A stretch of DNA of 49,472 bases from Verrucomicrobiota bacterium (GTDB taxonomy: Bacteria; Verrucomicrobiota; Verrucomicrobiia; Limisphaerales; JBFMBT01), in assembly GCA_040754875.1 (NCBI GenBank), contig JBFMBT010000003.1, positions 1 to 49,472 on the forward strand. The letters run 5' to 3'. The translations under genes and the position numbers were made by a program. The notes beneath the pieces are model-generated. The model saw nothing but the letters and a program-made list of their open reading frames with translations. It searched no databases and was not told the DNA's origin. Positions 2,721 through 49,472 of this stretch are shown here, one piece after another. Within the stretch, counting starts at the first letter, position 1. Every line of letters starts with the position of its first letter.

Positions 2721-2723
2721 GCC

Positions 2724-7028: not shown

Positions 7029-7260
7029 AGTTCAAAGTTCGCCGGGCGCGGCGCGCGCAGGCGAGATGAGAGCGCCGTGAACGGGTGCGGGTCGAATGAG
7101 GCGGAAGGGGCGTGAACGCCGCGCCCCAAGGGCATTATCATTGTTCCACGCTTCAATGTTTCAACGCATCACGATTCAACGATGCCTGGTTACATGGGAT
7201 TATGTGGGACAAACTGCCGCTTCCGCCCGCTTCCGCCCGATATCGGCGCGGTTGCAAAGT

Positions 7261-19008: not shown

Positions 19009-19063
19009 AACTGGACTTTACTTTGCTGGGTTGATGTGGGTACGGCGTTGCGTGATGAGGTGC

Positions 19064-30890: not shown

Positions 30891-31000
30891 TTGGAGCACG
30901 GTGGCAAGCGAAGCACGACACCGTTTTGGCCGGCAAATGCAGGCTGCCCACCACGCACCAAAAGCGCCGTCGCCGCTGCGCTCTGCCGGCGCACTCCAAA
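30890..31000. repeat. REP-like inverted doublet of the (C)AAAGCG...GCA(C/G)TCCAA family; other copies at ~10187-10225, ~12918-12957, 37924-37963, 40022-40060 and a remnant at ~35585-35602
   Basis: All share an aaagcg start, an internal hairpin and a gcactccaa/gcagtccaa end. The copies at 30961-31000 and 37924-37963 match at 37 of 40 positions. Confidence 0.8.
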
Positions 31001-31011
31001 GAGTGCGCAGC

Positions 31012-33222: not shown

Positions 33223-33287
33223 GGCAGGGATGTGATTCGGATTGAGGGTTTTCGCCAGGCGGCACGAGGACGATCAGGCGGGCGAAA

Positions 33288-35549
33288 TCACGACGACCGG
33301 TTGCGGCAGCGATGGAAGAGGTCGGCGAAGGCGGCGGCGTAAGGTTCGCGGAGCATGGTGTCGCCGGTGGAGCCGTCGGGGCCGTAATAGTCTTCGGTGC
33401 GAGGAGCGATGTTTCGCCAGGGCGTCACGACTTCATCCAAATCCAGCAATGACCTGGTCGGCAGGATAAGGCACACGCGGCCCGGAAAACTGGCGGGGCG
33501 GTAGCAGCACAAGGCCGCAATCGTGACGCGGGCAAGCTGGTCGCGCCGCTGCATCAGCGGGTCCGGGGCCGAGGACCGCGCGGCGGCGCGTTCCGCAGTG
33601 AGGTTGTGCCACCGCTCGGCGATGTAGGACCGCAGGTCGGCGAACGACAGGGTGGCGACGGCCCGGGCGTGGCGAAGGACGCGATTGGCTTCGGTCATGA
33701 CGCGCGCGCGCAGTTGCGGCAACGGGCGATACCATGTTGGGAACGGGCAGCCGAACAGGGCAAGCAGATTCACTTCCGTCCCGTCGCGCACAAGCTGGTG
33801 GGCCACTTCCAGGGCGATGCCGCCGCCCGAACAGAAGCCAGCAATAATGCACGGCCCGTCCGGCCGAAACTCACGGATCTGGCCGGCGAAATACGCGGCC
33901 AGGTCCTCGACACGCGCGAGCGGTTCGCTCTGGCCATCGAGTCCGGGAGGTTCCAGGCCGAAGAACGGCTGGTCTTCGCCGAGGTGCTGCGCGAGGAAGC
34001 GATAGCAGAAGACATCGCCGTTGTGCCCGGCGACACCAAACACGGGGGCGCGTGTTCCGTGCGGCTGCAAGGGCACGATGGCCCGCTGCTGCCGCGCCAG
34101 CGCGCCGGCCGATTGCAGGAACTGGAGAATCTCGCGCTTGTGTTGCTTCAGCTCCTCCTTCAGTTCCGCAGTCAAAGCGCCGGCGGGGGCGCTGCATCGC
34201 AACTGCCCGCCATCCGCCGAGACACGGATGTTGCGCTCGCGGAGTTTCGCGAGGAAGGAGTAAACATGGCCATTGTCGGCGCGCGTGAATTTCAAAGCCG
34301 TGTGGTTGGCGGATGAAACGGAGGGCGTCGCGGTTCGCTCCGCGGAAACAGGCCCGGTATTCGCACGCTCGCGCAGGTCGTTCAGGTTTTCCAGGCTGTC
34401 CAGGACTCGCGCGGTGGGCACGCCGAAATCCAGCAGGCAGGCGATTTCATCCACGCCGGCGTTGCGACAACACTCGACCATTCGCGCGCAGGTGGCAGGC
34501 GTTCCAAACAGACCGCTGGTCTCGTAGTAACGCTCGAAGGCCACGTCGAGCAGCGCTTCGATCTCGCGCTCGGGCAAGGCGCGGAGGTCCACATCCTGCG
34601 ATTTGCTGTTGGCGTCGCCGGCGCGGACGAAAGCGGGCATGTTGCCGGCCAGTTCCGCCACCAGTTTGAGCGAGCTGCGGAGGTAGTCCTTCATCGGCCG
34701 GCGAACCAGTTCGCGCACTTCGGCGTCATCGCCGCCGACCAACGTGTGGAGCATGAGCGTCACCCGGCCGGTCGCCGGATCGTGGCCGGCGGCGGCGCGT
34801 GCCTGGCGGTAAACGGCGATTTTTTCGGCGACTTGCTCCAGCGTCTGCCCAAGCAGATGAGTGAGCACGTTGCCGCCCAGTTCGCCGGCCTGCCGGTAGG
34901 TGTCGGGATTGCCCGCGGTTGTGATCCACAGCGGCAGATCCGGTTGCACCGGGCGCGGCAGGGTCTGAATCAACACCTCCTGGCCGAGCGGATTGCGAAA
35001 GGCGATTTTCTCACCGCGCCACAAACGCCGGACCTGGTCAATTTGTTCAAGCATGACGCGTTTGTTTTCGGCGTGGTTCTCCGGGCACAACACAAAATCA
35101 TTGAGCTGCCAGCCGGAAGCGAAGGCGATGGCGACGCGGCCGTTGCTGAGGTTGTCCACGACGGCCCACTCTTCCGCGATACGGATGGGATGGTGCAGCG
35201 GCGAGACGCAACTGCCCGCTCGGATGCCGAGACGCTCGGTGACAGCCGCCAGCGCGGCACCGGTGACGGATGGATTGGGGTACGGCCCGCCGAAGGCATG
35301 GAAATGGCGCTCGGGCGTCCACACCGCCTCGAAGCCGTGACGGTCGAAGTACTTCGCGCCTTCGATCATCAACCGGTATTTGTCGCGGCCCGGCGCGTCA
35401 TCGTTGCCCCACAGGAACAGGCTGAAAGCCATCGGCTTGATCGGGCGTTGCGCTTCGCGGGAGGAAACGACTTTGGCTTCGCCTTGAAGCGCGGTGGCCG
35501 AACGCCTCGTCGGTGGCGGAGCGATGGCGATGTCATTGATCGTTTGCAT
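33288..35549 (-). CDS. MupA/Atu3671-family luciferase-like monooxygenase fused to a TubC-type docking domain and an atypical thioesterase
   Basis: FSLFLWG, AVWTPERHFHAFGGPYPNPSV, HHPIRIAEEWAVVDNLSNGRV and GVDEIACLLDFG (LLM). LRERNIRVSADGGQLRCSAPAGALTAELKEELKQHKREILQFL (TubC_N). IVPLQPHG..GFCSGGGIALEVA (TE fold). Confidence 0.88.
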   Translation of the reverse strand: MQTINDIAIAPPPTRRSATALQGEAKVVSSREAQRPIKPMAFSLFLWGNDDAPGRDKYRLMIEGAKYFDRHGFEAVWTPERHFHAFGGPYPNPSVTGAALAAVTERLGIRAGSCVSPLHHPIRIAEEWAVVDNLSNGRVAIAFASGWQLNDFVLCPENHAENKRVMLEQIDQVRRLWRGEKIAFRNPLGQEVLIQTLPRPVQPDLPLWITTAGNPDTYRQAGELGGNVLTHLLGQTLEQVAEKIAVYRQARAAAGHDPATGRVTLMLHTLVGGDDAEVRELVRRPMKDYLRSSLKLVAELAGNMPAFVRAGDANSKSQDVDLRALPEREIEALLDVAFERYYETSGLFGTPATCARMVECCRNAGVDEIACLLDFGVPTARVLDSLENLNDLRERANTGPVSAERTATPSVSSANHTALKFTRADNGHVYSFLAKLRERNIRVSADGGQLRCSAPAGALTAELKEELKQHKREILQFLQSAGALARQQRAIVPLQPHGTRAPVFGVAGHNGDVFCYRFLAQHLGEDQPFFGLEPPGLDGQSEPLARVEDLAAYFAGQIREFRPDGPCIIAGFCSGGGIALEVAHQLVRDGTEVNLLALFGCPFPTWYRPLPQLRARVMTEANRVLRHARAVATLSFADLRSYIAERWHNLTAERAAARSSAPDPLMQRRDQLARVTIAALCCYRPASFPGRVCLILPTRSLLDLDEVVTPWRNIAPRTEDYYGPDGSTGDTMLREPYAAAFADLFHRCRNRSS

Positions 35550-35600
35550 GGTGATGGGTGAAAGCGTTTGGGTTTTTGGACTGTCAAAGCGGTGTCGCGC

Positions 35601-38600
35601 TCATAACACGACTTCTTCTTGAATCCCTGTTTCCTCGCCGGCTGGTGTGTTCGACAGGCGCAGCCATTGCAGCGCATCGATCGCCCCGGCGAGGTCAGCC
35701 AGCACCGGTTTTTCAAACAGCGTCCGCGTCGGCAAATCGACGTTGAAAGCGTCGCGAATGCGCGCGAGGGTTTTGATCGCCAGCAGGGAGTGGCCGCCCA
35801 AGTCGAAGAAATCATCATCGAGACCAACGTGCTCGACGTTCAACACTTCACTGAAAATACGCACGAGCGTCTGTTCGGTTTCGGTCGGCAGCCGGGAAAT
35901 CTCGCGAGCGGGCGAACGGCTTGGGGACGTTGGCGCGGGCAACGCCTGGCGGTCAAGCTTGCCGTTGGCTGTCAGGGGAAACTGCTCCAGCAGGACGAAG
36001 GCCGAGGGAATCATGTATTGAGGCAACCGCGCCTGGAGATGCTTGCGCAAGGCCACGGGGGTCAGAATCTCCGGTGTCGGCGGCACGCTGCGGAGATGCG
36101 CCCCGTCCGCCTGTTCCCGCACGAGCCGTCCGGCTGGCGAAGGCCGGATGGCGTACACGTAACAGAGGTCGGTTTTTGTGAGCAACGGATCCTGTTCGAG
36201 AAGCACTTCATAACCTTGCTGCTCCAGCAGAGCCATGAGCGGCGCCCGATCCTTTGCCTGGTCCACTTCAACGACCAACTGACGGATTTTTGCCCAATCG
36301 CCGGCACCAATTCCGCGCAGGACATCCAATTCGCTTTTCTCGACATTGATCTTGAGCAGGTCAATCCGCTCGACGCCCTCCGCGGTGATGACGTTGGACA
36401 GGGTCCGCAATTGAGTGGTTTCCGTCCGCGCGCGGAACCGGTCCTCGATGATTTCCTCGACGGCGCCGGCCAATTGCCCGTTGTCGGGCGAGCCTGACAT
36501 TTGATTGAGCGCGTAAGTCTTGACCACTTCGCGCTCGATCGCCGCGTCCGCGTAGAATCCGGACAACAAGGAGAAGCCTTCGAAGAAGGTCAACTCGGCC
36601 GTTCGTTCCTCGGAGGAAAGGCCGAACGGGAGGCATTTCGCGGCGGCGCCGTAGGCTTCGGCATTGGCCTTCAAGCAGGCGAAGGCGGCGGGGTTGGGTT
36701 CAAAGGCCAGCACGCGGAGACTCCGGGCCAGGCGGCTGGCAAAGACGGTGAACAGGCCGATGTTGGCGCCCGCATCCACAATCACGTCGCCGTCGCGGAT
36801 CGTGATCCCGTGGCGCAGATAGGCCTGAAGGACGAAAATCTCGTGGTAGATGTAATCGGTTTCGTGCTTGTTCAGATGCGCGACCGGCGAGCCGTCCGGC
36901 AGGAGATGAATCGCGCGCCCTTCCCACAGCGGCTGAGCCGGGCGTGTGGGGACGAGATATGCGACCAATTGTTTGCCGCTCGATTCCTCCTCCCGTCCCA
37001 ACACCACGGCTTCGCGCACGCCGGGGTGTTCACGCAAGACTGCTTCGATTTCCCCGGGCTCGATGCGGTAGCCGTGGATTTTGATCTGGTGATCCAGCCG
37101 CCCGCAAAACTCGAGGTTGCCGTCGGGCAGGTAGCGCGCCCGGTCGCCGGTGCGATACAGGCGGGAACCCGGGTGGAAGGGATCGGGAGTGAATTTTTCG
37201 GCGTTCAGCTCGGGGCGATTGAGGTAGCCGCGCGCCACTCCCGCGCCGCCGATGCACAACTCACCGGTCACGCCCCTCGGCACGGGCTGGCCGTGGCGGT
37301 CCAGGAGGTATACGCGGCTGTTGGGCAACGGTCGGCCCAGCGGCAACGTGCCTGACGGCGTGAGGGGGAAGTCGGCGCCGACGCGATACGTCAACACACC
37401 GACGGTTGTTTCGGTCGGCCCGTAGTGGTTGTAAATCTCGCAGCCGGGCGACCAGTCGCGCAGTTGCTTGATCCATTCCAGCCGGGACGCCTCGCCGCCC
37501 AGAATCAAACGCTGCCGGGGCATGATGGATTCGGGATTTCTCCCGCTCTGCAACGCGGCGAGATGAGAGGGGACGATTTTCAGCACGTCGATTTGCTCGC
37601 GGGCGAAGTATTCGGAAAGTTGCGCGGGACTCTCGGCCCGTTCGTGCGAGATGATGTGCAGGCAGCCGCCCGTGATGAGGGCCGGGAAAAGCACCGTGTT
37701 GCCGAGGTCGGCGGCAATGGTCGAAACCATCGCGTGCTGCATCCCAGGCGTGAGCCGCAGGCGTTCCACGATGCCCAACACGTAATTGACGATGTTGCGA
37801 TGTTCGATGCAGACGCCTTTGGGGCGGCCGGTGGATCCGCTGGTGAAGATTACATAGGCGGCGTTGGTTGGTGTTGCGGCGACGCCGCCTTGTTTTTTTG
37901 CCGAGCGGTGTTCAGTCGAAGTCAAAGCGCCGTCGCCGCTTCGCTTTGCCGGCGCAGTCCAAATTTCATCGAGGCAGACAGACCGGCAGTCTGAAGGCAG
38001 ACCCGGCAGAAGGCTGGTTTGCGTGACCAGGAGTTCAACACCAGCATCCGCCAGCATGAGGGCGATCCGTTCGGCAGGAAGCGCCGTATCGATTGGCACG
38101 TAGGCCGCGCCCGCCTTGAGAATGCCCAAGAGTCCCACCACCAACTCGACGGAACGCTCGACGCACAGACCGACCAGGACCTCCGGCCCCGCTCCCAACG
38201 TTCGCAGATGACGCGCCAGTTGGTCGGCGCGATGGTTCAGTTCCGCATAGGTCAAGCGCTGATCTTCAAAGGCCACGGCCGGTTGGTCGGGTGTGCGGGC
38301 GGCCTGCGCTTCGAACAACTGGTGCAGACAGAGGTTCTGGCGCGGATCAGCCACAGTCGTCTGGTTCCAATCCATCAACAATTGCGTGCGCTCCGGGTCG
38401 GTCAGCATGGGGAGTTCCCACACGCTTCGATCCGGGCAAGCGACCATGGCTTCGAGCAGCGCGCGCCAATGACCGGCCATCCGCGCGATGGTTTGTTCCT
38501 CGAACAAATCGGTGGCGTACTCGAAGTACGCGCGGAGCTCGCCAGGTGTTTCATCCACCAACACGGCGAGATCAAACAACGCCCCTCCCGCGTGCACGCA

Positions 38601-39974
38601 GAGCGGGCTGGTGGTGAGCCCGTCGAGTTCGAGCGCATCCTGCGGCCCGCTTTGCTGGGCGAACATGACCTGGAACAACGGATTGCGGCCCGGGTCCCGC
38701 CTGGGCTGGATTTCCTCGACGAGCCGGTCGAGGGGCAGTTCCTGATGCGCCACGGCGTCCAGGCACACTTCGCGCATGCGCGCCAGATGCTGGCGCACCG
38801 ACGGGTTGCCCGACAGATCGGCGCGCAGCACGACGGTGTTGGCGAAAAAGCCGATTGCGTTTTCGAACTCGGCGCGGTTGCGGTTGGCGACCGGCGTGCC
38901 CAGCAACAGGTCGTCCTGTCCGCTGTAGCGCGCCAGCAGCAGCGTGAAGCCGGAGGCCAGCGTCATGAAAAGCGTCGCGTGTTCCAGCCGGGCCAGACTG
39001 CGGAGGTCCTTGACCAGTTCCGCGGGAAGCGTGAACACCTGGATTGTTCCGCGATGCCGCTCCACCGGCGGCCGCGGGTGATCGGTCGGGAGTTCGAGCA
39101 CCTGTGGCGCGCCCGCCAGACGTGATTTCCAATGCGCGAGCGATTCGGCCAACGCCCCGTCCTGCCAGTGCTGACGTTGCCAGCGCGCGAAGTCGCGATA
39201 TTGAAAGCGAAGCGGCGGCAGGGCTGTCGGATGACCGCGTAAAAAGGCGTTATAGAGTTCGCCCAGTTCGCGAATCAGTATGCCTTCGGACCAGCCGTCC
39301 AGAATGATGTGGTGCATCGTCAGCATCAACACATGGGTGTCCGCAGCGATGCCGTAGAGCTGGGCGCGGAACAAGGGCCCGTTCGCCAAATCGAACGGGT
39401 GGGTAGCCGCTGCGCGCAGCCGTGTCATCAGCGTTGAGTGCGCATCCGGCTGTCCGCCCAGGTCTTCCACGGGCAGCGCCCATGGTCCCGATTCGAGCAC
39501 GACCTGGAACAACTGTTCCTCCATGTGCACGAACACGGTGCGCAGCGATTCATGCCGGCGAACCAACGCCTCGAAGGCGCGCTCGAGGGCCGGGACATCG
39601 AGGTTCCCGCGCAATTCGAAGGCCCGGGTCATGATGTAGGCCGTCCCACCGGGCTCGACCTGGTCGAGGAACCACAGGCGCTGCTGCGGATAGGAAAGTT
39701 CCGCCGGCGCGCGCAGAAATTCCAAGATTTCGCGCTTGTGCTGCCGCAGCTCTTCTTGCACGTCCGGCGTCAACACACCGGCTGGAGCGTCGCACCGCAG
39801 GTGATCGCCATCAGCCCAGACACGAACGTCCCGCGCGCGCAACTCAACCAACACGCCGGGCTCGGCCCAGGGGCGCGGGTGTCCATTGGGCGGCGACTTC
39901 AACCCGAGGCTGTGGGGCGTGGCGTTGGTACGTTCCCGCTGGCCGATTGGTGAGGTTGTTTCCTGTTTGTTCAT
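35601..39974 (-). CDS. NRPS2: TubC-type docking domain - C - A (Asp predicted) interrupted by an FkbM methyltransferase - PCP - C-terminal docking peptide
   Basis: LSYPQQRLWFLDQ, HHIILDGWS, AYVIFTSGSTGRPKG, YGPTE, LYRTGD, DAGANIG and DLLKINVEKSE (FkbM), NGKLDR and LGGHSLL. Likely start is the ATG at 39974; the ORF-track extension to 40163 overlaps NRPS1 and a REP. Confidence 0.92.
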   Translation of the reverse strand: MNKQETTSPIGQRERTNATPHSLGLKSPPNGHPRPWAEPGVLVELRARDVRVWADGDHLRCDAPAGVLTPDVQEELRQHKREILEFLRAPAELSYPQQRLWFLDQVEPGGTAYIMTRAFELRGNLDVPALERAFEALVRRHESLRTVFVHMEEQLFQVVLESGPWALPVEDLGGQPDAHSTLMTRLRAAATHPFDLANGPLFRAQLYGIAADTHVLMLTMHHIILDGWSEGILIRELGELYNAFLRGHPTALPPLRFQYRDFARWQRQHWQDGALAESLAHWKSRLAGAPQVLELPTDHPRPPVERHRGTIQVFTLPAELVKDLRSLARLEHATLFMTLASGFTLLLARYSGQDDLLLGTPVANRNRAEFENAIGFFANTVVLRADLSGNPSVRQHLARMREVCLDAVAHQELPLDRLVEEIQPRRDPGRNPLFQVMFAQQSGPQDALELDGLTTSPLCVHAGGALFDLAVLVDETPGELRAYFEYATDLFEEQTIARMAGHWRALLEAMVACPDRSVWELPMLTDPERTQLLMDWNQTTVADPRQNLCLHQLFEAQAARTPDQPAVAFEDQRLTYAELNHRADQLARHLRTLGAGPEVLVGLCVERSVELVVGLLGILKAGAAYVPIDTALPAERIALMLADAGVELLVTQTSLLPGLPSDCRSVCLDEIWTAPAKRSGDGALTSTEHRSAKKQGGVAATPTNAAYVIFTSGSTGRPKGVCIEHRNIVNYVLGIVERLRLTPGMQHAMVSTIAADLGNTVLFPALITGGCLHIISHERAESPAQLSEYFAREQIDVLKIVPSHLAALQSGRNPESIMPRQRLILGGEASRLEWIKQLRDWSPGCEIYNHYGPTETTVGVLTYRVGADFPLTPSGTLPLGRPLPNSRVYLLDRHGQPVPRGVTGELCIGGAGVARGYLNRPELNAEKFTPDPFHPGSRLYRTGDRARYLPDGNLEFCGRLDHQIKIHGYRIEPGEIEAVLREHPGVREAVVLGREEESSGKQLVAYLVPTRPAQPLWEGRAIHLLPDGSPVAHLNKHETDYIYHEIFVLQAYLRHGITIRDGDVIVDAGANIGLFTVFASRLARSLRVLAFEPNPAAFACLKANAEAYGAAAKCLPFGLSSEERTAELTFFEGFSLLSGFYADAAIEREVVKTYALNQMSGSPDNGQLAGAVEEIIEDRFRARTETTQLRTLSNVITAEGVERIDLLKINVEKSELDVLRGIGAGDWAKIRQLVVEVDQAKDRAPLMALLEQQGYEVLLEQDPLLTKTDLCYVYAIRPSPAGRLVREQADGAHLRSVPPTPEILTPVALRKHLQARLPQYMIPSAFVLLEQFPLTANGKLDRQALPAPTSPSRSPAREISRLPTETEQTLVRIFSEVLNVEHVGLDDDFFDLGGHSLLAIKTLARIRDAFNVDLPTRTLFEKPVLADLAGAIDALQWLRLSNTPAGEETGIQEEVVL

Positions 39975-40065
39975 CGCGGTTCTCAGTTTCAGTGGTCGAT
40001 CGCGTCGCGAAGATTTCGCGAAAAGCGGCGTGGCGCTTCGCTTCCCGCCGCAGTCCAAAGGTTGA

Positions 40066-43000
40066 TCAGATCGCGATTTCTTCCCGCATGCCAGCGGCGC
40101 CGGTCGGCGCTTGCGAGTTTTGCAACCACTGCAGTGCGTCAATGGCTTCGGCCAGGCCGGCAACGGTCGGGCGCGTGAACAGGTCGCGCAGCGGGAGGTC
40201 CACGCCCGATTCGGTTCGAAGCTGCGCCATCAACCGCGCGGCCATGAGCGAGTGGCCGCCAAGATCAAAGAAGTTGTCGAGCACGCCGAAATCTTCGCGC
40301 TTCAGCAAAGAACGGTAGATGCCCATGACCATTTCCTCGGTGGGTGTTCGCGGCGCGACGGCGGCGGCGCGCGGCGACGCATCAGCCGCGCTGGGCGCGG
40401 GCAGTGCCCTGCGATCAATTTTGCCATTGTGGGTGCGCGGCAGTGCGTCGAGCAAAACGAAGTGCGATGGGACCATGTATTCGGGCACGGCCGCGCGCAG
40501 CCGGGCGCGAAGCTGGTCCATCAAATCGGCCGGCGCGTTCGCGGCGGCGAGATAAGCGACGAGGCGCCTGTCCCCGGCCGTGTCCTCGCGCGCGATGACG
40601 GCGGTCTCGCGGACGGCCGGATGCTGCGCAATCACGGCCTCGATCTCTCCAAGCTCGATGCGGAACCCGCGCAGCTTGACCTGAAAATCGAGCCGGCCCA
40701 GGTGTTCGACCGTGCCGTCCTTGCGCCAGCGCGCGAGATCGCCGGTGCGATAAAGCAGGGCTCCCGGGACGGGGCTGCAAGGATCCGGGACGAAGCGATC
40801 CGCAGTCAGTTCCGGCCGCTCCCAGTAACCGAGCGCGACGCCGTCGCCTCCGATGCACAATTCGCCGGGGACGCCGACGGGACAGAGATTTTTCCAAGGA
40901 TCGAGAATCCGGACGACGGTGTTCGCAATGGGTTTGCCGATGGTGATTCCGCTGGACGTGTCGGTGGTGCGGGCGCAGGTGGACCATACCGTGGTTTCCG
41001 TGGGGCCGTACATGTTCCACAACTCGACGCCGCGCGCGAGCAGTTGAGCGGCGAGTTCCTCCGGCAGCGATTCGCCGCCGACCAATGCCTTGAACGGAGG
41101 CTTGGCGGGAGTCCCGTTCCAGCCGGTTTCCAACAAGAGCCGCCATGTGACCGGTGTGGCCTGCATGACAGAAGCGCGATGCCGTTCCAGGAGGGTGCGG
41201 AGCGCGTGGCCGTCCAGAGTTTCGTCATGGTCGGCGATAACAACGCGGGCGCCGACGGTCAGCGGCAGAAGGATTTCCAGCACGGCGATGTCAAAGGACA
41301 GCGTGGTGACGGCGACCAGCACGTCATTCGCGGTCAGACCCGGCTCGCGCGCCATGCTGGTCAGGAAGTTGACGACTGCACGGTGCGGGATGACCACGCC
41401 CTTGGGTTTGCCGGTGGAACCGGAGGTGTAGATGATGTAGGCGGGGTGGCCGGGTTGCGGGTTCGAGTCGGGATGCGGGGTGCGTGATGCGTGATGCGTG
41501 ATGCGTGAATCGAGGCACAGCACTTTCAGGTCGGGAATCTCAAATTTGAAACTGTCTCGCAACGACTGCTGCGTGAGCAACACGGACGCGCGGGAGTCTT
41601 CCAGCATGAACGCCAGCCGCTCCTTTGGATACATCGGGTCGAGCGGCACATAGGCGCCGCCCGATTTGAGGACGGCGAGCAGCGCCACGAGCATTTCGAG
41701 CGAGCGGTTCACGCAGAGACCCACGCGCACATCCGGCCCGACACCCAGCGCCCGCAGATCACCGGCCAGCGCGTTGGCGCGCGCGGTCAGTTCGCGGTAG
41801 GTGAGTTGCTGGTTTTCAAAAACCACGGCGACGGCATCCGGCGTGCGCGCCGCCTGCGCTTCAACCAGGTGATGAACACACGCGCGGTCGGGATACGCGG
41901 TTGGCGCCGGGTTCCATTCTTCAAGCAACTGCGTGTGTTCGGCGGCGGTCAGCAAGGGCAGTGCCGTCAGTTTCATATCCGGGTTTTCGACCACTGCTTC
42001 GAGCAGAGTTTGGAAATGGCCCAGGAGGCGAGAGACCGTGTCCGGTTCGAACAGGTCGGAATTGAATTCCACGTAACCTTCCAGGCGCTCGCCGTCTTCC
42101 TCCATTGAAAGGGACAAATCGAACTTGCTCGCGCCGTTGTGAACGAGGACCGAACTCCAATCCAGGCCCCCTGCCCGCTTGGACGGCATCGGCGCCTTTT
42201 GCAAAATGAACATCGCCTGAAAGACCGGCGACCGGCTCAGGTCGCGCTCGACACTCACGGCTTCCACCACTTTTTCAAAGGGCACGTCCTGATGGGTGAA
42301 GGCTTCCAGCGCAATTTTCCGCACTCGCTGCACCAATTCGCGGAAGGTTGGTTCGCCGGACAGATCGGTCCGCAGGGCCAGCGTGTTCAAAAACAATCCG
42401 GCCAGCCCTTCCAATTCGGCCCGTGTCCGACCGGCCACGGTTGTTCCGGTGATGATGTCCGTCTGCCCGGAATAGCGGTGAAGCAAGGTCTGAAACGCGC
42501 CGAGCAACAGCATGAACAGCGTCACGTCCTCGCGCTGGCAGAGCGACCTTAGCGCCGCGGACAGAGCGTCAGGGAGTGCGAAACATTTCACGGCGCCGCG
42601 GTACGATTGTTGCGCCGGACGCGGATGGTCGGCGGGCAGCTCCAACACCGGCAGCGGCCCCTGAAGTTGCCGTTTCCAATAGGCGAGCTGTTCTTCCAAC
42701 ACCTGGCCTTGCAGCCATTCGCGCTGCCATCGGGCATAATCGTCGAATTCGAGCGGCAACTCTGGAAGCGACGCGCTGGTGCCGTGCGCAAATGCGTCGT
42801 AAAGCTCCCGCAACTCACGGTAGAGAACCGCCATCGTCCAGCCATCGCTGATGATATGATGAGTGATCAGCATCAGCAGATGCTTCCGGTTGTTGAGGCG
42901 CAGCAGCTTCGTGCGCAACAACGGCGCTTTGCCGAGGTCGAATGGTTGCTCCGCTTCGCCGGTCATCACGCGCTCCATATGAGCGGGTTGTTCCTGATCC

Positions 43001-46000
43001 GACAAATGGTCGAGCGCAACCACGGACAATTCGATTTTGACCGCCGCGGCCCGCTGAGCGGTTGGTCTGCCTTGCGCATTGCTGAAGCTCGTCCGCAGAC
43101 TGCCGTGGCGGGCGACCAACGCGTTCAAACTTTTTCCCAGCGCGGCAACGTTCAGTTCGCCCTCCAGGACAATTCCAATGGGCACGTTGTACACCGGGAG
43201 TCCTGGCTCCAATTGATCCAGGAACCACAGCCGCTCCTGGGCGAAGGATGGTTCCGCAGCCCCATCAGCGCTGTTGTTGGACCGGCGCGCGATGGCCGGG
43301 AGAGATGAGCAACGCGAGTCCGCGCGCCTTTCATTCAACCGGACCGCCAGCCGCTCGATGGTCGGCTCCGCGAATACGGCTGGCAACGGCAGTTCCACCC
43401 CCAAGGCGTTGCGCACACGGGAAATCAGTTGTGTCACCAACAGGGAATGTCCTCCCAGTTGAAAGAAATTGTCGTGTATCCCCACGCGCTTCAAACCCAG
43501 GAGTTCGCACCAGATCCCGGCGAGCATTTCCTCGACCGGGTTCCGTGGAGCTGTGAAATCCGTGCCGGAGGACCGGATGTCCGGCGCGGGCAAGGCGCCG
43601 CGATCGATCTTGCCATTCGGATTGAGCGGTAATTGCGGCAAACCGACGATGAAGGGCGGAACCATGTAGTCCGGCAGCCTCGCCTGGAGGAAGGCGCGCA
43701 GTTCCTCGCTGGTTGGACCCGGGGATTCCTTCGACGCAAAGTAGCCGACCAACTGGTTGGTTCCGGCGGCGTCTTTGCGCGCGATTACAATGGACTGGCT
43801 TACGTCCGGGTGGCTGTTCAGGCAACTTTCGATTTCACCCGGCTCGACCCGGAAGCCGCGAATCTTGACCTGGTGATCGGTCCGCCCCAGAAACTCGATC
43901 TCGCCCGAGGTCAATCGCTTCACCCAATCACCGGTGCGATAGAGCCGCCCCAAATGCGGATAGGTGATGAATTTTTGCGCCGTGAGTTCCGGGCGCTTCC
44001 AGTAACCGAGCGCAACACCGTCTCCGCCAATGTACAATTCACCCGGTGCGCCGATGGGGACCGGGTTGAGCTGTTTGTCGAGCACCCATGCAGTGGTGTT
44101 CGCGATCGGACGGCCAATCGGAATCGACGGCGCGTTGGCCGGCACTTCCTTGATATGGTGCCATGTGGCGAACGTCGTGGTTTCGGTCGGCCCGTAAGCG
44201 TTCAGCAGACGCTCGGGCGGGTCCTGGAGCAGGACGGCGGCCGGCCATTTCGGGTCCGCCGCTTCGCCGCCGAAGAGCAGGTGCCGCACGTTTCGGAAAG
44301 CCCCGGGAGCTTCCGCGGCAATTTGATTGAACAGCGCCGTCGTAAGGAACATGGCGGTGATCTCATTGCGCACGATGGCATCGGCGAGTTCGCGCACGGC
44401 CAGCACCATCTTGGCGGGAATGATCACGAGGCGTCCGCCGTTCAGCAACGTGCCCCAAACCTCCCACGTGGCCGCGTCGAACGAACAGTTGGAGATTTGC
44501 GCCATGACGTCCTGCGGTGTGAGCGGCGCGTAATCGGTATTGAGCACGAGGCGGGTGATTGCGCGATGCGGCACGCACACGCCTTTGGGCGTTCCCGTGG
44601 AACCGGAAGTGTAAATGATGTAAGCCAGACTCTCGCCGTTTGCGGTGGGGGGAAGATTCTCCGCCGGATGGGCGGCGATCTGGGCTTCCGCCGCATCGAG
44701 GCACGTCACGACCGCAGAAGTATCGGGCAATGCATCTTTCAAGGCCGTGGTGGTGATAAGCACCGGCGCTTCCGTGTCTTCCATCATGAACGCGACGCGG
44801 TCCTTGGGATACGACCGGTCAAGCGGCACGTATGCGCCGCCGGCTTTCAGGATCGCGAGGAAGGTCACGATCATCGGCAGGCCGCGGTCGAGATACGTCG
44901 CCACTGGAGTGCCAGTCTTGACGCCGTGCTTGCGCAGGTGATGCGCCAGTTGATTGGCGCGAGCGTTCAACTGACCGTAAGAGCATTTAACCGCGCCATC
45001 GATTACGGCAACAGCGTCGGGCGTCTTTGCGGCCACGCGCTCAAACAGCTCCGCGACGCTGGCATCGCGCGGATACTCGCGGCTGGTTTCGTTCCAACCG
45101 GCCAGCAGTTCGCGGTCGCTTTCGGTCAACAGCGGCAAATCACCCACGCGTTGGGGCGAGGTTTGCGCGCTCCCCATCGCTTCCAGCACGGCCTGCAGGT
45201 GCTCGAGCAAGCGCTTGATGGCCGGACGCTCGAACAGGTTCGGGTCATAGACCAGCGTGAGCCGCGCGGAACCGGCGACGTAAACATCCAGAACCAGCGG
45301 GTAGTTCGGTTGATTGTGGACGCGAAACTGCCGGCCGCTCCAGGTCTGCCGGAGCACCGCGTCCCAAGGCGGATCGAGCACGCTCATCATCGTCTGGAAC
45401 AAGGGCCGCCCGGGCGGCGCGTCGCTCCAGGATTGGATCTTGAACAGCGGACTGTGCTCGAACTGGCGCAACTCGATCCATTGCTGACGGACTGTGCCCA
45501 GCCATTCAAGGAGTGGTTGATCCGCGGCGCAGCGCACGCGCACCGGCAGCGTGTTGATGAACGGGCCGGCGATGTCATTCGCGCCGAGCACGGGCACGTT
45601 GCGGCAGGACTTCACCGCGCCGAAGACCACTTCCTCCTCGCCGCTGTAGCGGTTTAACACCACAGCCCAGGCGCCCTGCAAAAAGGTGTTCAGCGTCAGG
45701 CGTTGTGTCTTTCCCCATTCGCGCAACGCCTTGATTGTCTGTTCCGGCACCACGGCTTCCTCCTCGACCCAGTTCCCGCTGACGACGGCGCTGCTGCTCT
45801 CTCGCGCGCACGCCGGCAGCGGCGTCGGCGTGGTGAATCCCGCCAATCGCTCGCGCCAGAAGTTCTCCGCTTTTGACCAATCCTGCTGCTGAAGCCAGGC
45901 GACATAATCCCCATATTCGGGCGCGGGCGTCAGCGACGGTTCCTGCCCGGCTTTCAGCGACTCGTAAACCGCAAAGAGGTCGTTGAGCAGAATCACGACC

Positions 46001-46533
46001 ATGCGGGAATCCGAGAGCAAGTGATGGATGCTCCAGACAAACTGGCAGCGCCCCCGGCCCAGCCGGAGCAACGCCACGCGAATGAGCGGGGCGACGGTAA
46101 TGTCAAAGCGCATTTGTCGGTCCGCCTGAAGCAACGCCTCCAGCCGCTCCTCCTGGACCTGCGCTGACAGGCCGCTCCAATCCTCCAGCCGGACAGGAAC
46201 CCGCCCGTGCTCCGAAACCAGCTGCCGGGGCGATGCCAATCCTTCCCAACGGAAACTGGTCCGGAGAATGGAATGGCGCTCCGCCACGCACTGCCAGGCC
46301 CGGTTGAACAACTCCGCATGGACCTCCTCCTGCCAGTCACAAATGATCTGCGAGATGTCCACGCCGGAGTCGGTGGCGTAGAGACTGTGGAACAGCATGC
46401 CCTCCTGCAAAGGGGAGAGCGGATGCGTCACTTCGCCCGTTCCGGCGCGCGCGTTTCCAGTGATGGCAACATCCCGCCGCGACTTCGGCGGGTCAACGTT
46501 CGGAGTGTTCTTGGTGGTTGATTTCATTTCCAT
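40066..46533 (-). CDS. NRPS1: C-A(Val/Ile/Leu predicted)-PCP-C-A(Gly predicted)-PCP plus C-terminal docking peptide
   Basis: C1 PLSPLQEGMLFHSL..HHLLSDSR. A1 AYIIYTSGSTGTPKG. PCP LGGHSLL. C2 SFAQERLWFLDQ..HHIISDGW. A2 FDIAVLE..YGPTETTVWS. PCP LGGHSLM. Ends in REEIAI. Confidence 0.95.
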   Translation of the reverse strand: MEMKSTTKNTPNVDPPKSRRDVAITGNARAGTGEVTHPLSPLQEGMLFHSLYATDSGVDISQIICDWQEEVHAELFNRAWQCVAERHSILRTSFRWEGLASPRQLVSEHGRVPVRLEDWSGLSAQVQEERLEALLQADRQMRFDITVAPLIRVALLRLGRGRCQFVWSIHHLLSDSRMVVILLNDLFAVYESLKAGQEPSLTPAPEYGDYVAWLQQQDWSKAENFWRERLAGFTTPTPLPACARESSSAVVSGNWVEEEAVVPEQTIKALREWGKTQRLTLNTFLQGAWAVVLNRYSGEEEVVFGAVKSCRNVPVLGANDIAGPFINTLPVRVRCAADQPLLEWLGTVRQQWIELRQFEHSPLFKIQSWSDAPPGRPLFQTMMSVLDPPWDAVLRQTWSGRQFRVHNQPNYPLVLDVYVAGSARLTLVYDPNLFERPAIKRLLEHLQAVLEAMGSAQTSPQRVGDLPLLTESDRELLAGWNETSREYPRDASVAELFERVAAKTPDAVAVIDGAVKCSYGQLNARANQLAHHLRKHGVKTGTPVATYLDRGLPMIVTFLAILKAGGAYVPLDRSYPKDRVAFMMEDTEAPVLITTTALKDALPDTSAVVTCLDAAEAQIAAHPAENLPPTANGESLAYIIYTSGSTGTPKGVCVPHRAITRLVLNTDYAPLTPQDVMAQISNCSFDAATWEVWGTLLNGGRLVIIPAKMVLAVRELADAIVRNEITAMFLTTALFNQIAAEAPGAFRNVRHLLFGGEAADPKWPAAVLLQDPPERLLNAYGPTETTTFATWHHIKEVPANAPSIPIGRPIANTTAWVLDKQLNPVPIGAPGELYIGGDGVALGYWKRPELTAQKFITYPHLGRLYRTGDWVKRLTSGEIEFLGRTDHQVKIRGFRVEPGEIESCLNSHPDVSQSIVIARKDAAGTNQLVGYFASKESPGPTSEELRAFLQARLPDYMVPPFIVGLPQLPLNPNGKIDRGALPAPDIRSSGTDFTAPRNPVEEMLAGIWCELLGLKRVGIHDNFFQLGGHSLLVTQLISRVRNALGVELPLPAVFAEPTIERLAVRLNERRADSRCSSLPAIARRSNNSADGAAEPSFAQERLWFLDQLEPGLPVYNVPIGIVLEGELNVAALGKSLNALVARHGSLRTSFSNAQGRPTAQRAAAVKIELSVVALDHLSDQEQPAHMERVMTGEAEQPFDLGKAPLLRTKLLRLNNRKHLLMLITHHIISDGWTMAVLYRELRELYDAFAHGTSASLPELPLEFDDYARWQREWLQGQVLEEQLAYWKRQLQGPLPVLELPADHPRPAQQSYRGAVKCFALPDALSAALRSLCQREDVTLFMLLLGAFQTLLHRYSGQTDIITGTTVAGRTRAELEGLAGLFLNTLALRTDLSGEPTFRELVQRVRKIALEAFTHQDVPFEKVVEAVSVERDLSRSPVFQAMFILQKAPMPSKRAGGLDWSSVLVHNGASKFDLSLSMEEDGERLEGYVEFNSDLFEPDTVSRLLGHFQTLLEAVVENPDMKLTALPLLTAAEHTQLLEEWNPAPTAYPDRACVHHLVEAQAARTPDAVAVVFENQQLTYRELTARANALAGDLRALGVGPDVRVGLCVNRSLEMLVALLAVLKSGGAYVPLDPMYPKERLAFMLEDSRASVLLTQQSLRDSFKFEIPDLKVLCLDSRITHHASRTPHPDSNPQPGHPAYIIYTSGSTGKPKGVVIPHRAVVNFLTSMAREPGLTANDVLVAVTTLSFDIAVLEILLPLTVGARVVIADHDETLDGHALRTLLERHRASVMQATPVTWRLLLETGWNGTPAKPPFKALVGGESLPEELAAQLLARGVELWNMYGPTETTVWSTCARTTDTSSGITIGKPIANTVVRILDPWKNLCPVGVPGELCIGGDGVALGYWERPELTADRFVPDPCSPVPGALLYRTGDLARWRKDGTVEHLGRLDFQVKLRGFRIELGEIEAVIAQHPAVRETAVIAREDTAGDRRLVAYLAAANAPADLMDQLRARLRAAVPEYMVPSHFVLLDALPRTHNGKIDRRALPAPSAADASPRAAAVAPRTPTEEMVMGIYRSLLKREDFGVLDNFFDLGGHSLMAARLMAQLRTESGVDLPLRDLFTRPTVAGLAEAIDALQWLQNSQAPTGAAGMREEIAI
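41481..41508. repeat. (TGCGTGA)x4 tandem heptamer inside NRPS1
   Basis: tgcgtga tgcgtga tgcgtga tgcgtga, encoding SRITHHASR on the minus strand. Confidence 0.95.
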
Positions 46534-46536
46534 ACT

Positions 46537-47565
46537 CTAACGATTTAGCGCTTCCAACGAGTTCGCGTTCACCCCCGCGATTTCCTCATAGAATTGCTCC
46601 AGCGCCCGACCCGCAGTGAAGGTCGAAAGCTCGGGGAGACGTCCCGACTGCCGCAGATCGACGCGCCGGCAGTTCCGTCGCACCAGGGAAAGTTTTGCCG
46701 CCAGGTCCTCCGCGTCGGGCCGCGCCAGGTGGCAGCCATCAATCCCTTCGATGCGCTCGGCCACGTCGCCCACGTCCACGGAAACGACGGGCAGGCCGCA
46801 CGCAAGGGCTTCCTTTACCACGGTGGGCGATCCTTCGTGCTGGGAGGTCAGGAGCAACACATCGCTCGCGTTCAACCAGACGGGCACTTCGGCGTTGGGC
46901 ACGCCGGTCAAATAGTGCAGCTCCGGCAGGCGATCGACGTGGTCCATTTGCGCCACGGCTGCTTGTGCCAGCCAGGGGCGCTTCACGGGGTCGCCGTTGC
47001 TGGACGCGAACAACACGTGGAAGGAGTCGTTTCGCCAGCCGAGCTTTTGTTTGCAGAGCAGTGAATCCATCGGTTTGAACCGCTCGAGGTCGATGCCGCA
47101 CGGAATCACCCGGATCTTGTCCGGCGAAACCGCGCCGTTCAAAGCCCTGACCAGATGCCGCGCCACGACGATCACGCCCTCGGCAGCCCGGGCCGCCCGG
47201 CGCGAACAGTGCACGCCGTAGCGCGCGATGATTTTGCGCGTCCAACCGGAAAGGTTTTCGCCCAGCAAATCCGAACCGTGGAAGGTCACCACAACCGGGC
47301 GGACATGATGCTCGCGCAACACCTGGTCGGCCATCACGCCGCCGTACATCACATGAATCACGTGGGGATCGAACTCAGCGACGGCGCTCTGGACCCGGTT
47401 TTGCATCCGGTAGTACGTCAGCGGCCCTTCCTGCCGCCGGTCCACGAACAGCACACGCACGTCCAGGCCGAGTGCGCACAGGCCCCTGACTTGCTCCTGC
47501 ACGAAGACGCCCCGACCGGGGAACGCCGGCGACGGATACATGTTGGTGATGGCAAGGATGCGCAT
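46537..47565 (-). CDS. GT4-family glycosyltransferase (TuaC-like)
   Basis: MRILAITNMYPS..GVFVQEQV, VVTFHGSDL, IPCGID and EGSPTVVKEALACGLPVVSVDVGD (EX7E motif). Confidence 0.92.
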   Translation of the reverse strand: MRILAITNMYPSPAFPGRGVFVQEQVRGLCALGLDVRVLFVDRRQEGPLTYYRMQNRVQSAVAEFDPHVIHVMYGGVMADQVLREHHVRPVVVTFHGSDLLGENLSGWTRKIIARYGVHCSRRAARAAEGVIVVARHLVRALNGAVSPDKIRVIPCGIDLERFKPMDSLLCKQKLGWRNDSFHVLFASSNGDPVKRPWLAQAAVAQMDHVDRLPELHYLTGVPNAEVPVWLNASDVLLLTSQHEGSPTVVKEALACGLPVVSVDVGDVAERIEGIDGCHLARPDAEDLAAKLSLVRRNCRRVDLRQSGRLPELSTFTAGRALEQFYEEIAGVNANSLEALNR

Positions 47566-47572
47566 GGGGGCA

Positions 47573-47596
47573 TTGAAACGTTGAAACGTTGAAACG
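47573..47596. repeat. (TTGAAACG)x3 tandem octamer just upstream of the GT4 start codon
   Basis: Three exact copies in the 45-bp spacer between the dehydratase and GT genes. Confidence 0.95.
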
Positions 47597-47610
47597 AACT
47601 GCCACCGCGG

Positions 47611-49472
47611 TTACACGGCTTCCGCGTCTTTGGCATGCGGGAATGGCTGGGCAAACCCCGGCGCGACGGCTGGCTGGCGCCCGTTCCGCTTGTCTTCGTC
47701 TGTCTGCGCCGGCGCTTCCGCATCGCGTAACACCGTGCGCGATCCCAGTTGCGGTTGATATTCGGGCACCACGCGTTTCAACGACTGCTTGATTTCGTCG
47801 GCTTTCAATTGATCCATTTGCGCGCCCAATTCCAGCACGCTGCGACGCACCTGTTCGAAGGGCAGAGGTTCGCAAACCAACTGCATGATCTTGGGGTGAC
47901 GAGTGGGCGCAATATGCTCCCCTTGATAGCTGAGTTCCTCGAATAATTTTTCGCCGGGGCGGAGCCCCGTGAACTCGATGCGAATGTCCTGGTCGGGTGT
48001 GAACCCGGAAAGCTCGATCAACTGCCGCGCCAGGTCCACAATCTTGACCGGCTTGCCCATGTCCAAGGTAAAAATCTCACCGCCGAATCCCATGGCGGCG
48101 CTTTGCAACACCAGGCCGACGGCCTCCGGAATGGTCATGAAGTAGCGGGTGACATCCGGGTGCGTGACTTTGACCGGTCCGCCCGCGGCGATCTGCTTGT
48201 TGAAAATCGGCACGACACTACCCGACGAACCAAGCACGTTGCCGAACCGCACCGCCATGAACCGCGTGGCTTCCGGATGGCTTTCGTAAAGCGATTGCAC
48301 GCACATTTCCGCCAATCGTTTGGTTGCCCCCATGACATTGGTCGGATTGATGGCTTTGTCGCTGGAAATGAGAACGAACCGGTCCGTCCCGTGCCGCACG
48401 CACGTTTCAGCCAGGCGCAAGGTGCCCAACGCGTTGTTTTTGACCGCCTCGCCCGGCTGCGATTCCATCATGGGCACGTGCTTGTGCGCGGCGGCGTGGA
48501 AGACGACCGCCGGCTGATACTGCCCGAAAACATGATCGAGCCGCGCTTCGTCCTGAATATTCGCGACAAGCGGGACAATCCGTTTGCCGTGGCCTGAATC
48601 AATCAGCTCCTGCTCGATTTGAAACAATTGCACCTCCGACTGCTCGACCAGCAACAGCGCGCGTGGTGAGTAGGCCGCGATTTGCCGGCACAACTCGCTG
48701 CCGATGCTCCCGCCGGCGCCCGTCACCATCACCACCCGGTCGCGCAGCAGGTTTTGAATGACGCTGGTGTCCAGGCGCACCTGTTCGCGGCCCAACAGAT
48801 CCTCGACATTCACGCTGCGCAACTGGCTGACCTTGGCCTGGCCGGTCGAAAGCTCGTAGATCGAGGGCACGGTGCTGAACTTGATCTTCAACTGCTGGAG
48901 GGTTCTGATGATCTCCGCCACACGACTGGCCGGCGCGCTGGGCATGGCGATGATCACCTCCTCCAGTTCCAGGTTCGCGTGGTCGTTCAGCAAAATCTCC
49001 GGTGCGCCCACCACGGGAATATTCAGCACGGACTTTCCCCATTTGAGCCGGTCGTCGTCGAAGAACGCCACCGCCTGCAACCCGAGGTCGCGACGGGCGG
49101 CGAACTCGTGCGCCAGGGCCGTGCCAACCAGACCCGCCCCGATGATGCCCGCGCGCCGCGCCCGTTGCCGCGGCGGACTGGCCGCGCGCTGGTTGGCGCG
49201 CGCATGGGCCTGGCGGAGCGCCAGGCGGATGGCCGTCAGCGCCAGGAGTGAAAAACTGAAGTCAATCAACACGACGCTTCGCGGTGGCGCGTAGGTCCAC
49301 CCCAAATGCGGAGAAAGACCGAACACGACAAACGTTGTGGTGAGCAGAATCCATAACAGCCGTGAAAAATCCGGCGCGCTGAAGTAACCGGGCAGCACAT
49401 CGAACTGGTGGAATCGCCAGAGGCAGAGCAGCTTGAAAATTATGACCCAAACAAACACGAGGGGAAACGTCC
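47611..49472 (-). CDS. CapD/PglF/WbpM-type membrane nucleoside-diphosphate-sugar 4,6-dehydratase (5'-partial; runs off the window)
   Basis: N-terminal TM helices, IIGAGLVG, VEDLLGRE, TGAGGSIGSEL, HAAAHKHVP, ISSDKAINPTNVMGATK, VRFGNVLGSSGSV and GLRPGEKLFEEL. The frame is open to the window edge. Confidence 0.95.
   Translation of the reverse strand, partial: TFPLVFVWVIIFKLLCLWRFHQFDVLPGYFSAPDFSRLLWILLTTTFVVFGLSPHLGWTYAPPRSVVLIDFSFSLLALTAIRLALRQAHARANQRAASPPRQRARRAGIIGAGLVGTALAHEFAARRDLGLQAVAFFDDDRLKWGKSVLNIPVVGAPEILLNDHANLELEEVIIAMPSAPASRVAEIIRTLQQLKIKFSTVPSIYELSTGQAKVSQLRSVNVEDLLGREQVRLDTSVIQNLLRDRVVMVTGAGGSIGSELCRQIAAYSPRALLLVEQSEVQLFQIEQELIDSGHGKRIVPLVANIQDEARLDHVFGQYQPAVVFHAAAHKHVPMMESQPGEAVKNNALGTLRLAETCVRHGTDRFVLISSDKAINPTNVMGATKRLAEMCVQSLYESHPEATRFMAVRFGNVLGSSGSVVPIFNKQIAAGGPVKVTHPDVTRYFMTIPEAVGLVLQSAAMGFGGEIFTLDMGKPVKIVDLARQLIELSGFTPDQDIRIEFTGLRPGEKLFEELSYQGEHIAPTRHPKIMQLVCEPLPFEQVRRSVLELGAQMDQLKADEIKQSLKRVVPEYQPQLGSRTVLRDAEAPAQTDEDKRNGRQPAVAPGFAQPFPHAKDAEAV

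Follow-up and report, generated by a model that had tools for sequence, protein, structure and literature searches.

The 3' end of an exopolysaccharide (EPS) locus in an uncultured soil Verrucomicrobium and its relatives, directly after the gene for a GT4 glycosyltransferase, is a variable slot that holds different thiotemplate assembly lines in different families. The slot was recognised in a stretch of DNA of 49,472 nt, here called the window, which is the complete contig C3 of the source genome (G000, a metagenome-assembled genome of 566 contigs and 6.7 Mb), and in which it is occupied by a line of nonribosomal peptide synthetases (NRPSs). Five co-directional genes at the end of the window encode, in order of transcription and all on the minus strand, a CapD/PglF-like membrane NDP-sugar 4,6-dehydratase (47611-49470, running to 49472), the GT4 glycosyltransferase (46537-47565), NRPS1 (40066-46533), NRPS2 (35601-39974 from an ATG start, with a TTG-extended open reading frame (ORF) reaching 40163) and a release protein (33288-35549) in which Pfam and NCBIfam recognise a luciferase-like monooxygenase (LLM), a docking domain and a thioesterase (TE), and which is referred to as LLM-TE. 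The gaps between them, calculated from the coordinates, are 45, 3, 91 and 51 nt. The genes, strand, gaps, domains and adenylation-domain codes given in a first-pass annotation of this DNA were all recovered when re-derived from ORF coordinates, Pfam and NCBIfam searches and translation.

Both sugar genes can be placed at family level. The CapD-like protein has a Polysacc_synt_2 domain (PF02719, 386.6 bits) preceded by an N-terminal CoA_binding_3 domain in Pfam, and scores below the NCBIfam equivalog cut-offs for PseB (164.8 vs 407.75) and FnlA (124.7 vs 730); it is a predicted member of the Polysacc_synt_2 family, and its exact reaction is not fixed by these equivalogs. The glycosyltransferase contains the Pfam domains Glyco_transf_4 and Glycos_transf_1 and is assigned to GT4 at family level only, scoring 95.7 bits where the TuaC equivalog of NCBIfam requires 550, and a search of the PDB gave no close solved structure relative for it.

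The dehydratase gene is open at its 5' end where the contig stops, and its first ~45 codons are found on another contig of the same genome, contig C2, the start of which shares an exact overlap of 19 nt with the end of contig C3. The reading frame is continuous across this join, and the 45 residues encoded on contig C2 align with the N-termini of the CapD orthologs in two relatives (loci L173 and L177). From its start, the minus strand of contig C2 encodes orthologs of the EPS-locus proteins of one of these relatives (G788). In the direction of transcription, and all on the same strand, Pfam and NCBIfam identified Poly_export, a Wzc-like tyrosine kinase, a Wzx-like Polysacc_synt_3 protein, two unnamed ORFs, DUF2334, an AsnB-like amidotransferase, Wzy_C, an epimerase, GT4, a methyltransferase, GNAT, a second GT4, Formyl_trans_N, a deacetylase, MBOAT, an unnamed ORF of 349 residues, GT2, DegT and Bac_transf, after which follows the CapD-like gene over the join. 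The co-directional EPS genes on contig C2 cover ~29 kb, giving ~45 kb for the locus on contig C2 and the window together. With Bac_transf, the Wzx-like flippase (36.6 bits, cut-off 23), Wzy_C, the Wzc-like kinase (TIGR01007, 135.9 vs 108.05) and Poly_export, it is a predicted Wzx/Wzy-dependent EPS locus. The first-pass annotation had proposed reading the upstream contig for wzx, wzy, wza and sugar aminotransferase genes, and the Wzx-like protein, Wzy_C, Poly_export and DegT are those counterparts. The best NCBIfam names on contig C2 belong to the XrtA/PEP-CTERM EPS system, all of them below their cut-offs (pepcterm_export 99.3 vs 180, pepcterm_TyrKin 141.9 vs 230.65, eps_aminotran_1 589.9 vs 816.9), and the four exosortase genes of the genome are on other contigs (C20, C55 and C174), so that we do not assign the locus to that system.

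Taken with the genes on contig C2, the join makes the NRPS genes a 3' extension of the EPS locus. As the CapD-like and GT4 genes are located on the NRPS contig itself, the adjacency of sugar and NRPS genes is independent of that join, and since NRPS-like matches are present on only ~8 contigs of the 6.7 Mb genome, a chance adjacency of NRPS and GT4 genes is unlikely. A consensus scan of 30000-49472, using a consensus which may not suit this phylum, detected no promoter-like site, the intergenic gaps included, and terminator-like sites were no more frequent in that region than in shuffled sequences, with none in the intergenic gaps. The three NRPS genes (NRPS1, NRPS2 and LLM-TE) are most likely co-transcribed with the EPS locus as its predicted distal part.

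We searched related genomes for the GT4 gene and compared what follows it. Of 400 genomes from the order, 15 have an ortholog, 14 of them at 57-74% identity and a weaker one at 42%; none turned up in a phylum-wide sample of 400 genomes or in the five genomes behind other loci. The same EPS locus, with the shared gene order DegT, Bac_transf, CapD, GT4, is present in G553, G653, G788 and G623, and is rearranged in G584. One ortholog-bearing contig (L184) is too short to judge, which leaves 14 informative loci. Thiotemplate genes on the same strand and within 12 kb downstream of GT4 are present in six of these 14, representing at least five families. The GT4 gene is followed by an NRPS, an LLM, a carbamoyltransferase and another NRPS in G788 (L173), by an NRPS up to the contig end in G474 (L174), by a DH-FkbM-ACP protein, a methyltransferase, an AMP-binding enzyme and a KS-AT protein in G553 (L172), by the FkbM part only, at the contig end, in G658 (L175), by AMP-binding-T-C-A and T-TE proteins in G770 (L181), and by A-T-C-A-T-C-A in G655 (L182), where C, A and T denote condensation, adenylation and thiolation (carrier) domains and ACP an acyl carrier protein. 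In G788 and G474 the CapD, GT4 and NRPS genes are all on single contigs. A metagenomic locus, L110, adds a GT4 gene (65% identity) followed by genes for an epimerase, a carbamoyltransferase, an FGE-type protein, a C-A(LLM)-T protein and a dock-TE protein, and four of six long (>40 kb) contigs with an LLM-dock-TE gene also appear to carry the GT4 ortholog, as judged by equal lengths and not by sequence.

Some of these loci have further features. In L110 the carbamoyltransferase (1882-3703) and the C-A(LLM)-T gene (6127-9869) each consist of two overlapping ORFs, which suggests frameshifts, arising from sequencing errors or from decay, and the GT4 ortholog of G551 (C384:9640-10683, L178) contains one in-frame TGA. 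Homologs of the GT4 protein with ~70% identity are labelled as coming from Candidatus Binatia and Candidatus Acidoferrum; none of 301 genomes from the phylum of a Binatia-labelled genome gave a match, and such labels may represent mis-binned contigs or rare transfers.

Carrier-protein genes are also found inside the EPS locus of relatives, where a trio of genes encodes an NAD-synthase-like protein, an ACP with a GVVDS motif and an AMP-ligase (L186:942-4253 in G788, and also L176, L177/L188 and L179). On the basis of this trio, thiotemplate chemistry is predicted to be native to this EPS locus. The trio is absent from G000 and G553, both of which have an NRPS or polyketide synthase (PKS) line, and present together with an assembly line in G788; this is a hint, from few loci, that an assembly line may substitute for the trio. 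Contig C2 itself has, at 4835-7442 (L191), the MBOAT and the neighbouring ORF of 349 residues. The only solved relatives of the MBOAT are DltB proteins, although few bacterial MBOAT structures exist, and the protein of 349 residues resembles SGNH/DUF1574 clusters, which we record as a lead only. When the relatives' loci were compared, neither of the two had a match in them, and an MBOAT and SGNH-like pair would also fit plain O-acetylation.

The two synthetases follow the order of a type I modular NRPS, with Condensation, AMP-binding and PP-binding domains of Pfam in three modules. NRPS1 has the architecture C-A-T-C-A-T and consists of C1 (46425-45094), A1 (45093-43564), T1 (43524-43345), the second condensation domain (43248-41923), A2 (41862-40420), T2 and a C-terminal docking tail, as located by Pfam and NCBIfam. 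According to Pfam, NRPS2 starts with a TubC_N docking domain (39851-39711), followed by C3 (39701-38376), the N-terminal part of A3 (38315-36945), an FkbM methyltransferase (Methyltransf_21; 36776-36207) embedded within the AMP-binding_C part of A3, T3 (35873-35679) and a docking tail. The core motifs are intact in the translation (HHxxxD of the C domains, GGHS of the T domains and the A10 lysine), and hand reading of the translation combined with scripts gave the codes DAWFLGATF(K) for A1, DILQLGMVW(K) for A2 and DLTKIGHVG(K) for A3; for A2 the script displaced position 278. The tails of NRPS1 and NRPS2 resemble each other, as do the two TubC_N domains (PF18563; 63.8 and 70.7 bits, cut-off 26), and together they form putative beta-hairpin docking pairs.

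NRPS1 opens with C1 after 36 residues, preceded only by the GT4 and CapD-like genes, and the window contains no loading module for its donor. The best solved relatives of C1 in the PDB (McyB, PvdL, the bacitracin synthase 3 BacC, TycB and SrfA-C) differ from those of the second condensation domain (Txo1/2, 5u89 and TycC), and C domains of the former group accept D-configured or acyl donors. The tripeptide predicted from the three modules is therefore only the minimum product, although the count of three modules itself was borne out. Further NRPS fragments are present in the genome on contigs C33, C151, C220, C336 and C24, none of which could be linked to the line in the window; the C domains on C33 and C151 are 46% and 40% identical to C1, and C220 terminates in a TE.

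The LLM-TE protein consists of the LLM (35426-34371), an internal TubC_N dock (34265-34113) and the TE (34031-33291). The LLM is a member of TIGR04020 (MupA/Atu3671 LLM; 504.9 bits, cut-off 244.45), and the nucleophile motif of the TE is GFCSGG, with a Cys (Cys573, codon 33833-33831) in place of the usual Ser. In alignments this Cys takes the position held by Ser in chain 7crn and by Cys in chain 4zxh, and the motif G[FY]CxGG is kept in all 25 TE homologs examined, in agreement with the non-canonical release domain noted at first pass. Searches of a large protein collection gave 20 full-length homologs with the LLM-dock-TE architecture, all metagenomic and with 59-78% identity, and no close ortholog with that architecture was found among 40 relatives of the same order. 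In the loci of relatives the LLM is found with Gly modules: it is inserted into a Gly-type A domain, immediately behind motif A4, in L110 and in L011, the best locus of a genome-contig scan with LLM-TE (C-A(LLM)-T, not an ortholog of LLM-TE), it is part of an LLM-dock-TE protein that follows an NRPS with a Gly-code terminal module in the metagenomic L094, and it stands alone after a C-A(Gly)-T protein in G788. Judged by these relationships, the LLM of the window is predicted to belong with the monooxygenase (MOX) domains of the MtaG/MelG type.

The last part of the line also recurs in soil metagenomes as a two-gene cassette, in which an A(DLTK[IV]GHVG)-FkbM-T protein is followed by a dock-TE protein with a Cys nucleophile. 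Of 80 metagenomic loci scanned for dock-TE, 27 have FkbM matches, and the DLTK[IV]GHVG code was present in 26 A domains (cassette loci include L096, L105, L108, L111, L114, L120, L137, L157 and L161). The pathway served by this cassette appears to be uncharacterised. We set aside the possible alternative that the LLM acts as a beta-hydroxylase leading to 3-methoxy-Asp, as none of the 27 metagenomic loci with an FkbM match shows an LLM match, and likewise set aside beta-lactone release, to which the Cys nucleophile alone points.

Downstream of LLM-TE, family searches identified three more genes on the minus strand, encoding a secreted right-handed beta-helix/Big_7 protein (31012-33222), a Calx-beta/PKD repeat protein (29301-31136, start uncertain) and a subtilisin-like S8 peptidase (27478-29121). 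The beta-helix protein has a paralog on the plus strand at 23371-27408, with which it shares its N- and C-terminal parts, and these secreted proteins may be polysaccharide-modifying or -degrading enzymes. Further away, a DUF1501/DUF1800 gene pair is located at 17752-21380 on the minus strand; a long stretch in the N-terminal part of the DUF1800 product is rich in Ala, Glu and Arg. The absence of an exporter from the window, as stated earlier, holds for the annotated genes; PDB searches gave nothing for the unnamed ORFs 63-2720 and 7261-10020, and matched ORF 3849-7028 only to chains titled 'putative peptidase'.

With regard to function, we lean slightly towards a product that serves the EPS, either by decorating or capping a repeat unit that is initiated with an amino sugar or as a partner produced alongside, a proposal that draws on sequence comparison. 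What supports such a functional tie is the recurrent synteny after GT4, which is independent of the architecture of the assembly line. The line would start with a donor encoded outside the window, either an acyl group or a D-aminoacyl or peptidyl group on a carrier, which C1 would condense with a Val/Leu/Ile-like residue. The chain would be extended with Gly and handed over to NRPS2 through a docking pair of tail and beta-hairpin, after which NRPS2 would add an Asp-like residue, to be methylated by the embedded FkbM-type methyltransferase. The LLM-dock-TE protein would then dock on the carrier-domain tail of NRPS2, and possibly on that of NRPS1 too; with the two tails alike and the two docks alike, it might visit either carrier domain. 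Its MtaG/MelG-type monooxygenase would hydroxylate a carrier-bound residue, and the Cys thioesterase would off-load the product. A more far-reaching version, which we advance tentatively and hold to be rather unlikely, is that the assembly lines represent serotype-like decoration modules, in which the growing glycan would receive the carrier-bound peptide or polyketide either from the Cys TE, at the 4-amino sugar that CapD and DegT would provide, or, in the case of G000, by a Dlt-like route via the MBOAT and SGNH-like proteins.

Several observations weigh against a role in the EPS. While the NRPS genes do lie, as suggested at first pass, in an operon-like polysaccharide locus that continues on contig C2, no enzyme joining peptide to sugar was identified, and MtaG-like chemistry would yield a free peptide amide and an alpha-keto acid with no need for a sugar; the locus also has its own candidates for N-acylation of an amino sugar in GNAT and Formyl_trans_N. 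The residues Val/Ile/Leu-like, Gly and Asp, which we take the codes of A1, A2 and A3 to specify, come from code tables and not from a predictor. Among the related genomes, G553 and G658 are congeners and their kin loci are not independent, and seven of the 14 informative loci (G508, G623, G653, G551, G584, G721 and G540) are without an assembly line. The parts of the line are also widespread away from sugar genes, which qualifies the recurrence seen after GT4 in six of the 14 loci and in L110. The LLM was found in 35 of the 400 genomes of the order, 32 of which have no GT4 ortholog at E 1e-60 and three of which do. Neither CapD nor GT4 was present in the fetched flanks of any of the 80 LLM loci kept from the genome-contig scan, in which the LLM is almost always inside or beside A domains, and in L157 the cassette adjoins genes for an Sfp-type phosphopantetheinyl transferase and an acyl-CoA dehydrogenase, with no EPS genes. 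The metagenomic dock-TE loci gave similar counts (CapD 0/80, GT4 1/80), although these are uninformative for long NRPSs, as the upstream flanks of up to 10 kb cannot reach a GT4 gene placed as in the window.

Much of this would be expected if the NRPS genes were a stand-alone cluster for a free peptide, for instance an N-capped peptide amide formed by the MOX and TE, inserted in an island-like end of the EPS locus, with incidental read-through and an EPS that is unchanged by it. We regard this as a serious possibility, if on the whole an unlikely one. It agrees with the occurrence of LLM-NRPS loci and of the A-FkbM-T/dock-TE cassette away from sugar genes, with the EPS loci that lack an assembly line, and with the free terminal amide which is the proposed outcome for LLMs of the MtaG/MelG kind in the pertinent section of PMC11411415. 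An S8 peptidase gene, its product 63% identical to that of the window, also comes after the LLM-dock-TE gene in L094, indicating that some of the neighbourhood moves along with the NRPS genes. What speaks against a stand-alone cluster is that only 3 nt separate GT4 from NRPS1, that the slot holds different assembly lines in five or more other families and in L110, and that the annotated genes of the window include no transporter or regulator which the cluster could call its own. Moreover, homologs of the beta-helix protein encoded downstream of the NRPS genes (51-58% identity) are located beside GT4 in L176 (G623) and near the locus in L179 (G584); as they flank the EPS locus in relatives, the NRPS genes are inside this locus and not beside it.

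It is improbable that the line makes a glycosylated peptide or lipopeptide by a logic like that of glycopeptidolipids, with CapD/DegT and GT4/GT2 glycosylating a released peptide and no polymer being formed. The NRPS, glycosyltransferase and methyltransferase genes do form one co-directional block, N-acylation would agree with the N-terminal C domain, and L181 has an AMP-binding-T-C-A/T-TE line, but the full polymer machinery is present, from Bac_transf, the Wzx-like flippase and Wzy_C to the Wzc-like kinase and Poly_export, and GT4 is kept together with the sugar cassette even where an assembly line is lacking altogether. An error of assembly or binning, by which contig C2 would not adjoin contig C3 or the NRPS contig would come from another organism, is conceivable for a genome in 566 contigs, with an overlap of only 19 nt between these two, yet most improbable given that the CapD frame is kept over the join, that the N-terminus encoded on contig C2 aligns with orthologs, and that CapD, GT4 and NRPS genes are found together on single contigs in G788 and G474.

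The individual parts of the system can be compared with known ones. The myxothiazol and melithiazol proteins MtaG and MelG likewise bring together a luciferase-like monooxygenase, a Gly module and a thioesterase to close the line, and the relatives of the window LLM in L011 and L110 share with them the insertion into a Gly-type A domain after motif A4. For the C-A-MOX-A-T-TE proteins MtaG and MelG, the part of PMC11411415 concerned with them proposes that an alpha-hydroxylated glycyl thioester gives rise to an amide at the terminus, with the TE freeing the keto acid. The layout of such a terminal module, with the MOX in the A domain of the terminal Gly module and followed by a TE, is seen in L011 and L110 and partly in L094, and is absent from the window. 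There, unlike in MtaG/MelG, the LLM is outside the A domain, would be delivered in trans and is fused via an internal beta-hairpin dock to a free-standing TE, the last module has an Asp-like code and an FkbM methyltransferase, Gly is the second-to-last residue, and the TE nucleophile is Cys. Similarly, the Cys-nucleophile TE of AB3403 (PDB 4zxh) has the motif GxCxG, with its GWCFGG aligned to GFCSGG, and ObiF1 and SulM are also described as Cys-nucleophile thioesterases; unlike these three, the TE of the window is free-standing with an N-terminal dock and LLM, and nothing beyond the Cys points to a beta-lactone or beta-lactam.

As to the sugar genes, initiation in the Pgl system uses the PglF dehydratase, the PglE aminotransferase, the PglC phosphoglycosyltransferase and the GT4 enzyme PglA, and DegT, Bac_transf, the CapD-like protein and GT4 are the same enzyme families in one block. 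Unlike in Pgl, there is no PglD-like acetyltransferase beside the cassette, which forms part of a Wzx/Wzy/Wzc/Wza polymer locus. Carrier-protein chemistry within a surface-polymer locus has its precedents in DltA, DltC, DltB and DltD, responsible for D-alanylation of teichoic acids, and in the PKS genes RkpA and WcbR of capsule loci, which PMC3908369 mentions. A possible resemblance to Dlt lies in the AMP-ligase and ACP pair in the relatives' loci and in the MBOAT in the locus of G000 with DltB as its only solved relatives. No DltA or DltC ortholog was found in G000, no ligase/ACP pair in its EPS locus, and no MBOAT match in the relatives' loci that carry the ligase/ACP pair. Unlike either precedent, the window has a three-module NRPS with tailoring domains and not a single PKS or adenylation enzyme. 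A word search of the open-access literature, supplements aside, gave no description of a multi-modular NRPS in an EPS locus.

Should the link with the EPS fail, what remains is a small, well-defined NRPS cluster of which the release protein is unusual. Two of its parts are under-studied, namely the Cys-nucleophile MOX-dock-TE protein, predicted to act in trans, and the A domain with an Asp code into which an FkbM methyltransferase is inserted. Should the decoration reading be true, these bacteria would make a peptide-decorated exopolysaccharide of which the decoration varies between lineages. Carrier-protein chemistry on surface polymers is known in simple forms, such as D-alanylation and single PKS genes in capsule loci, and an EPS locus with lineage-specific NRPS or PKS lines in its distal slot would extend it to multi-residue decorations. 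It would also join natural-product assembly lines and surface glycans, which genome-mining tools handle separately, and the locus provides a testable system for this in the abundant, uncultured Verrucomicrobia of soil.

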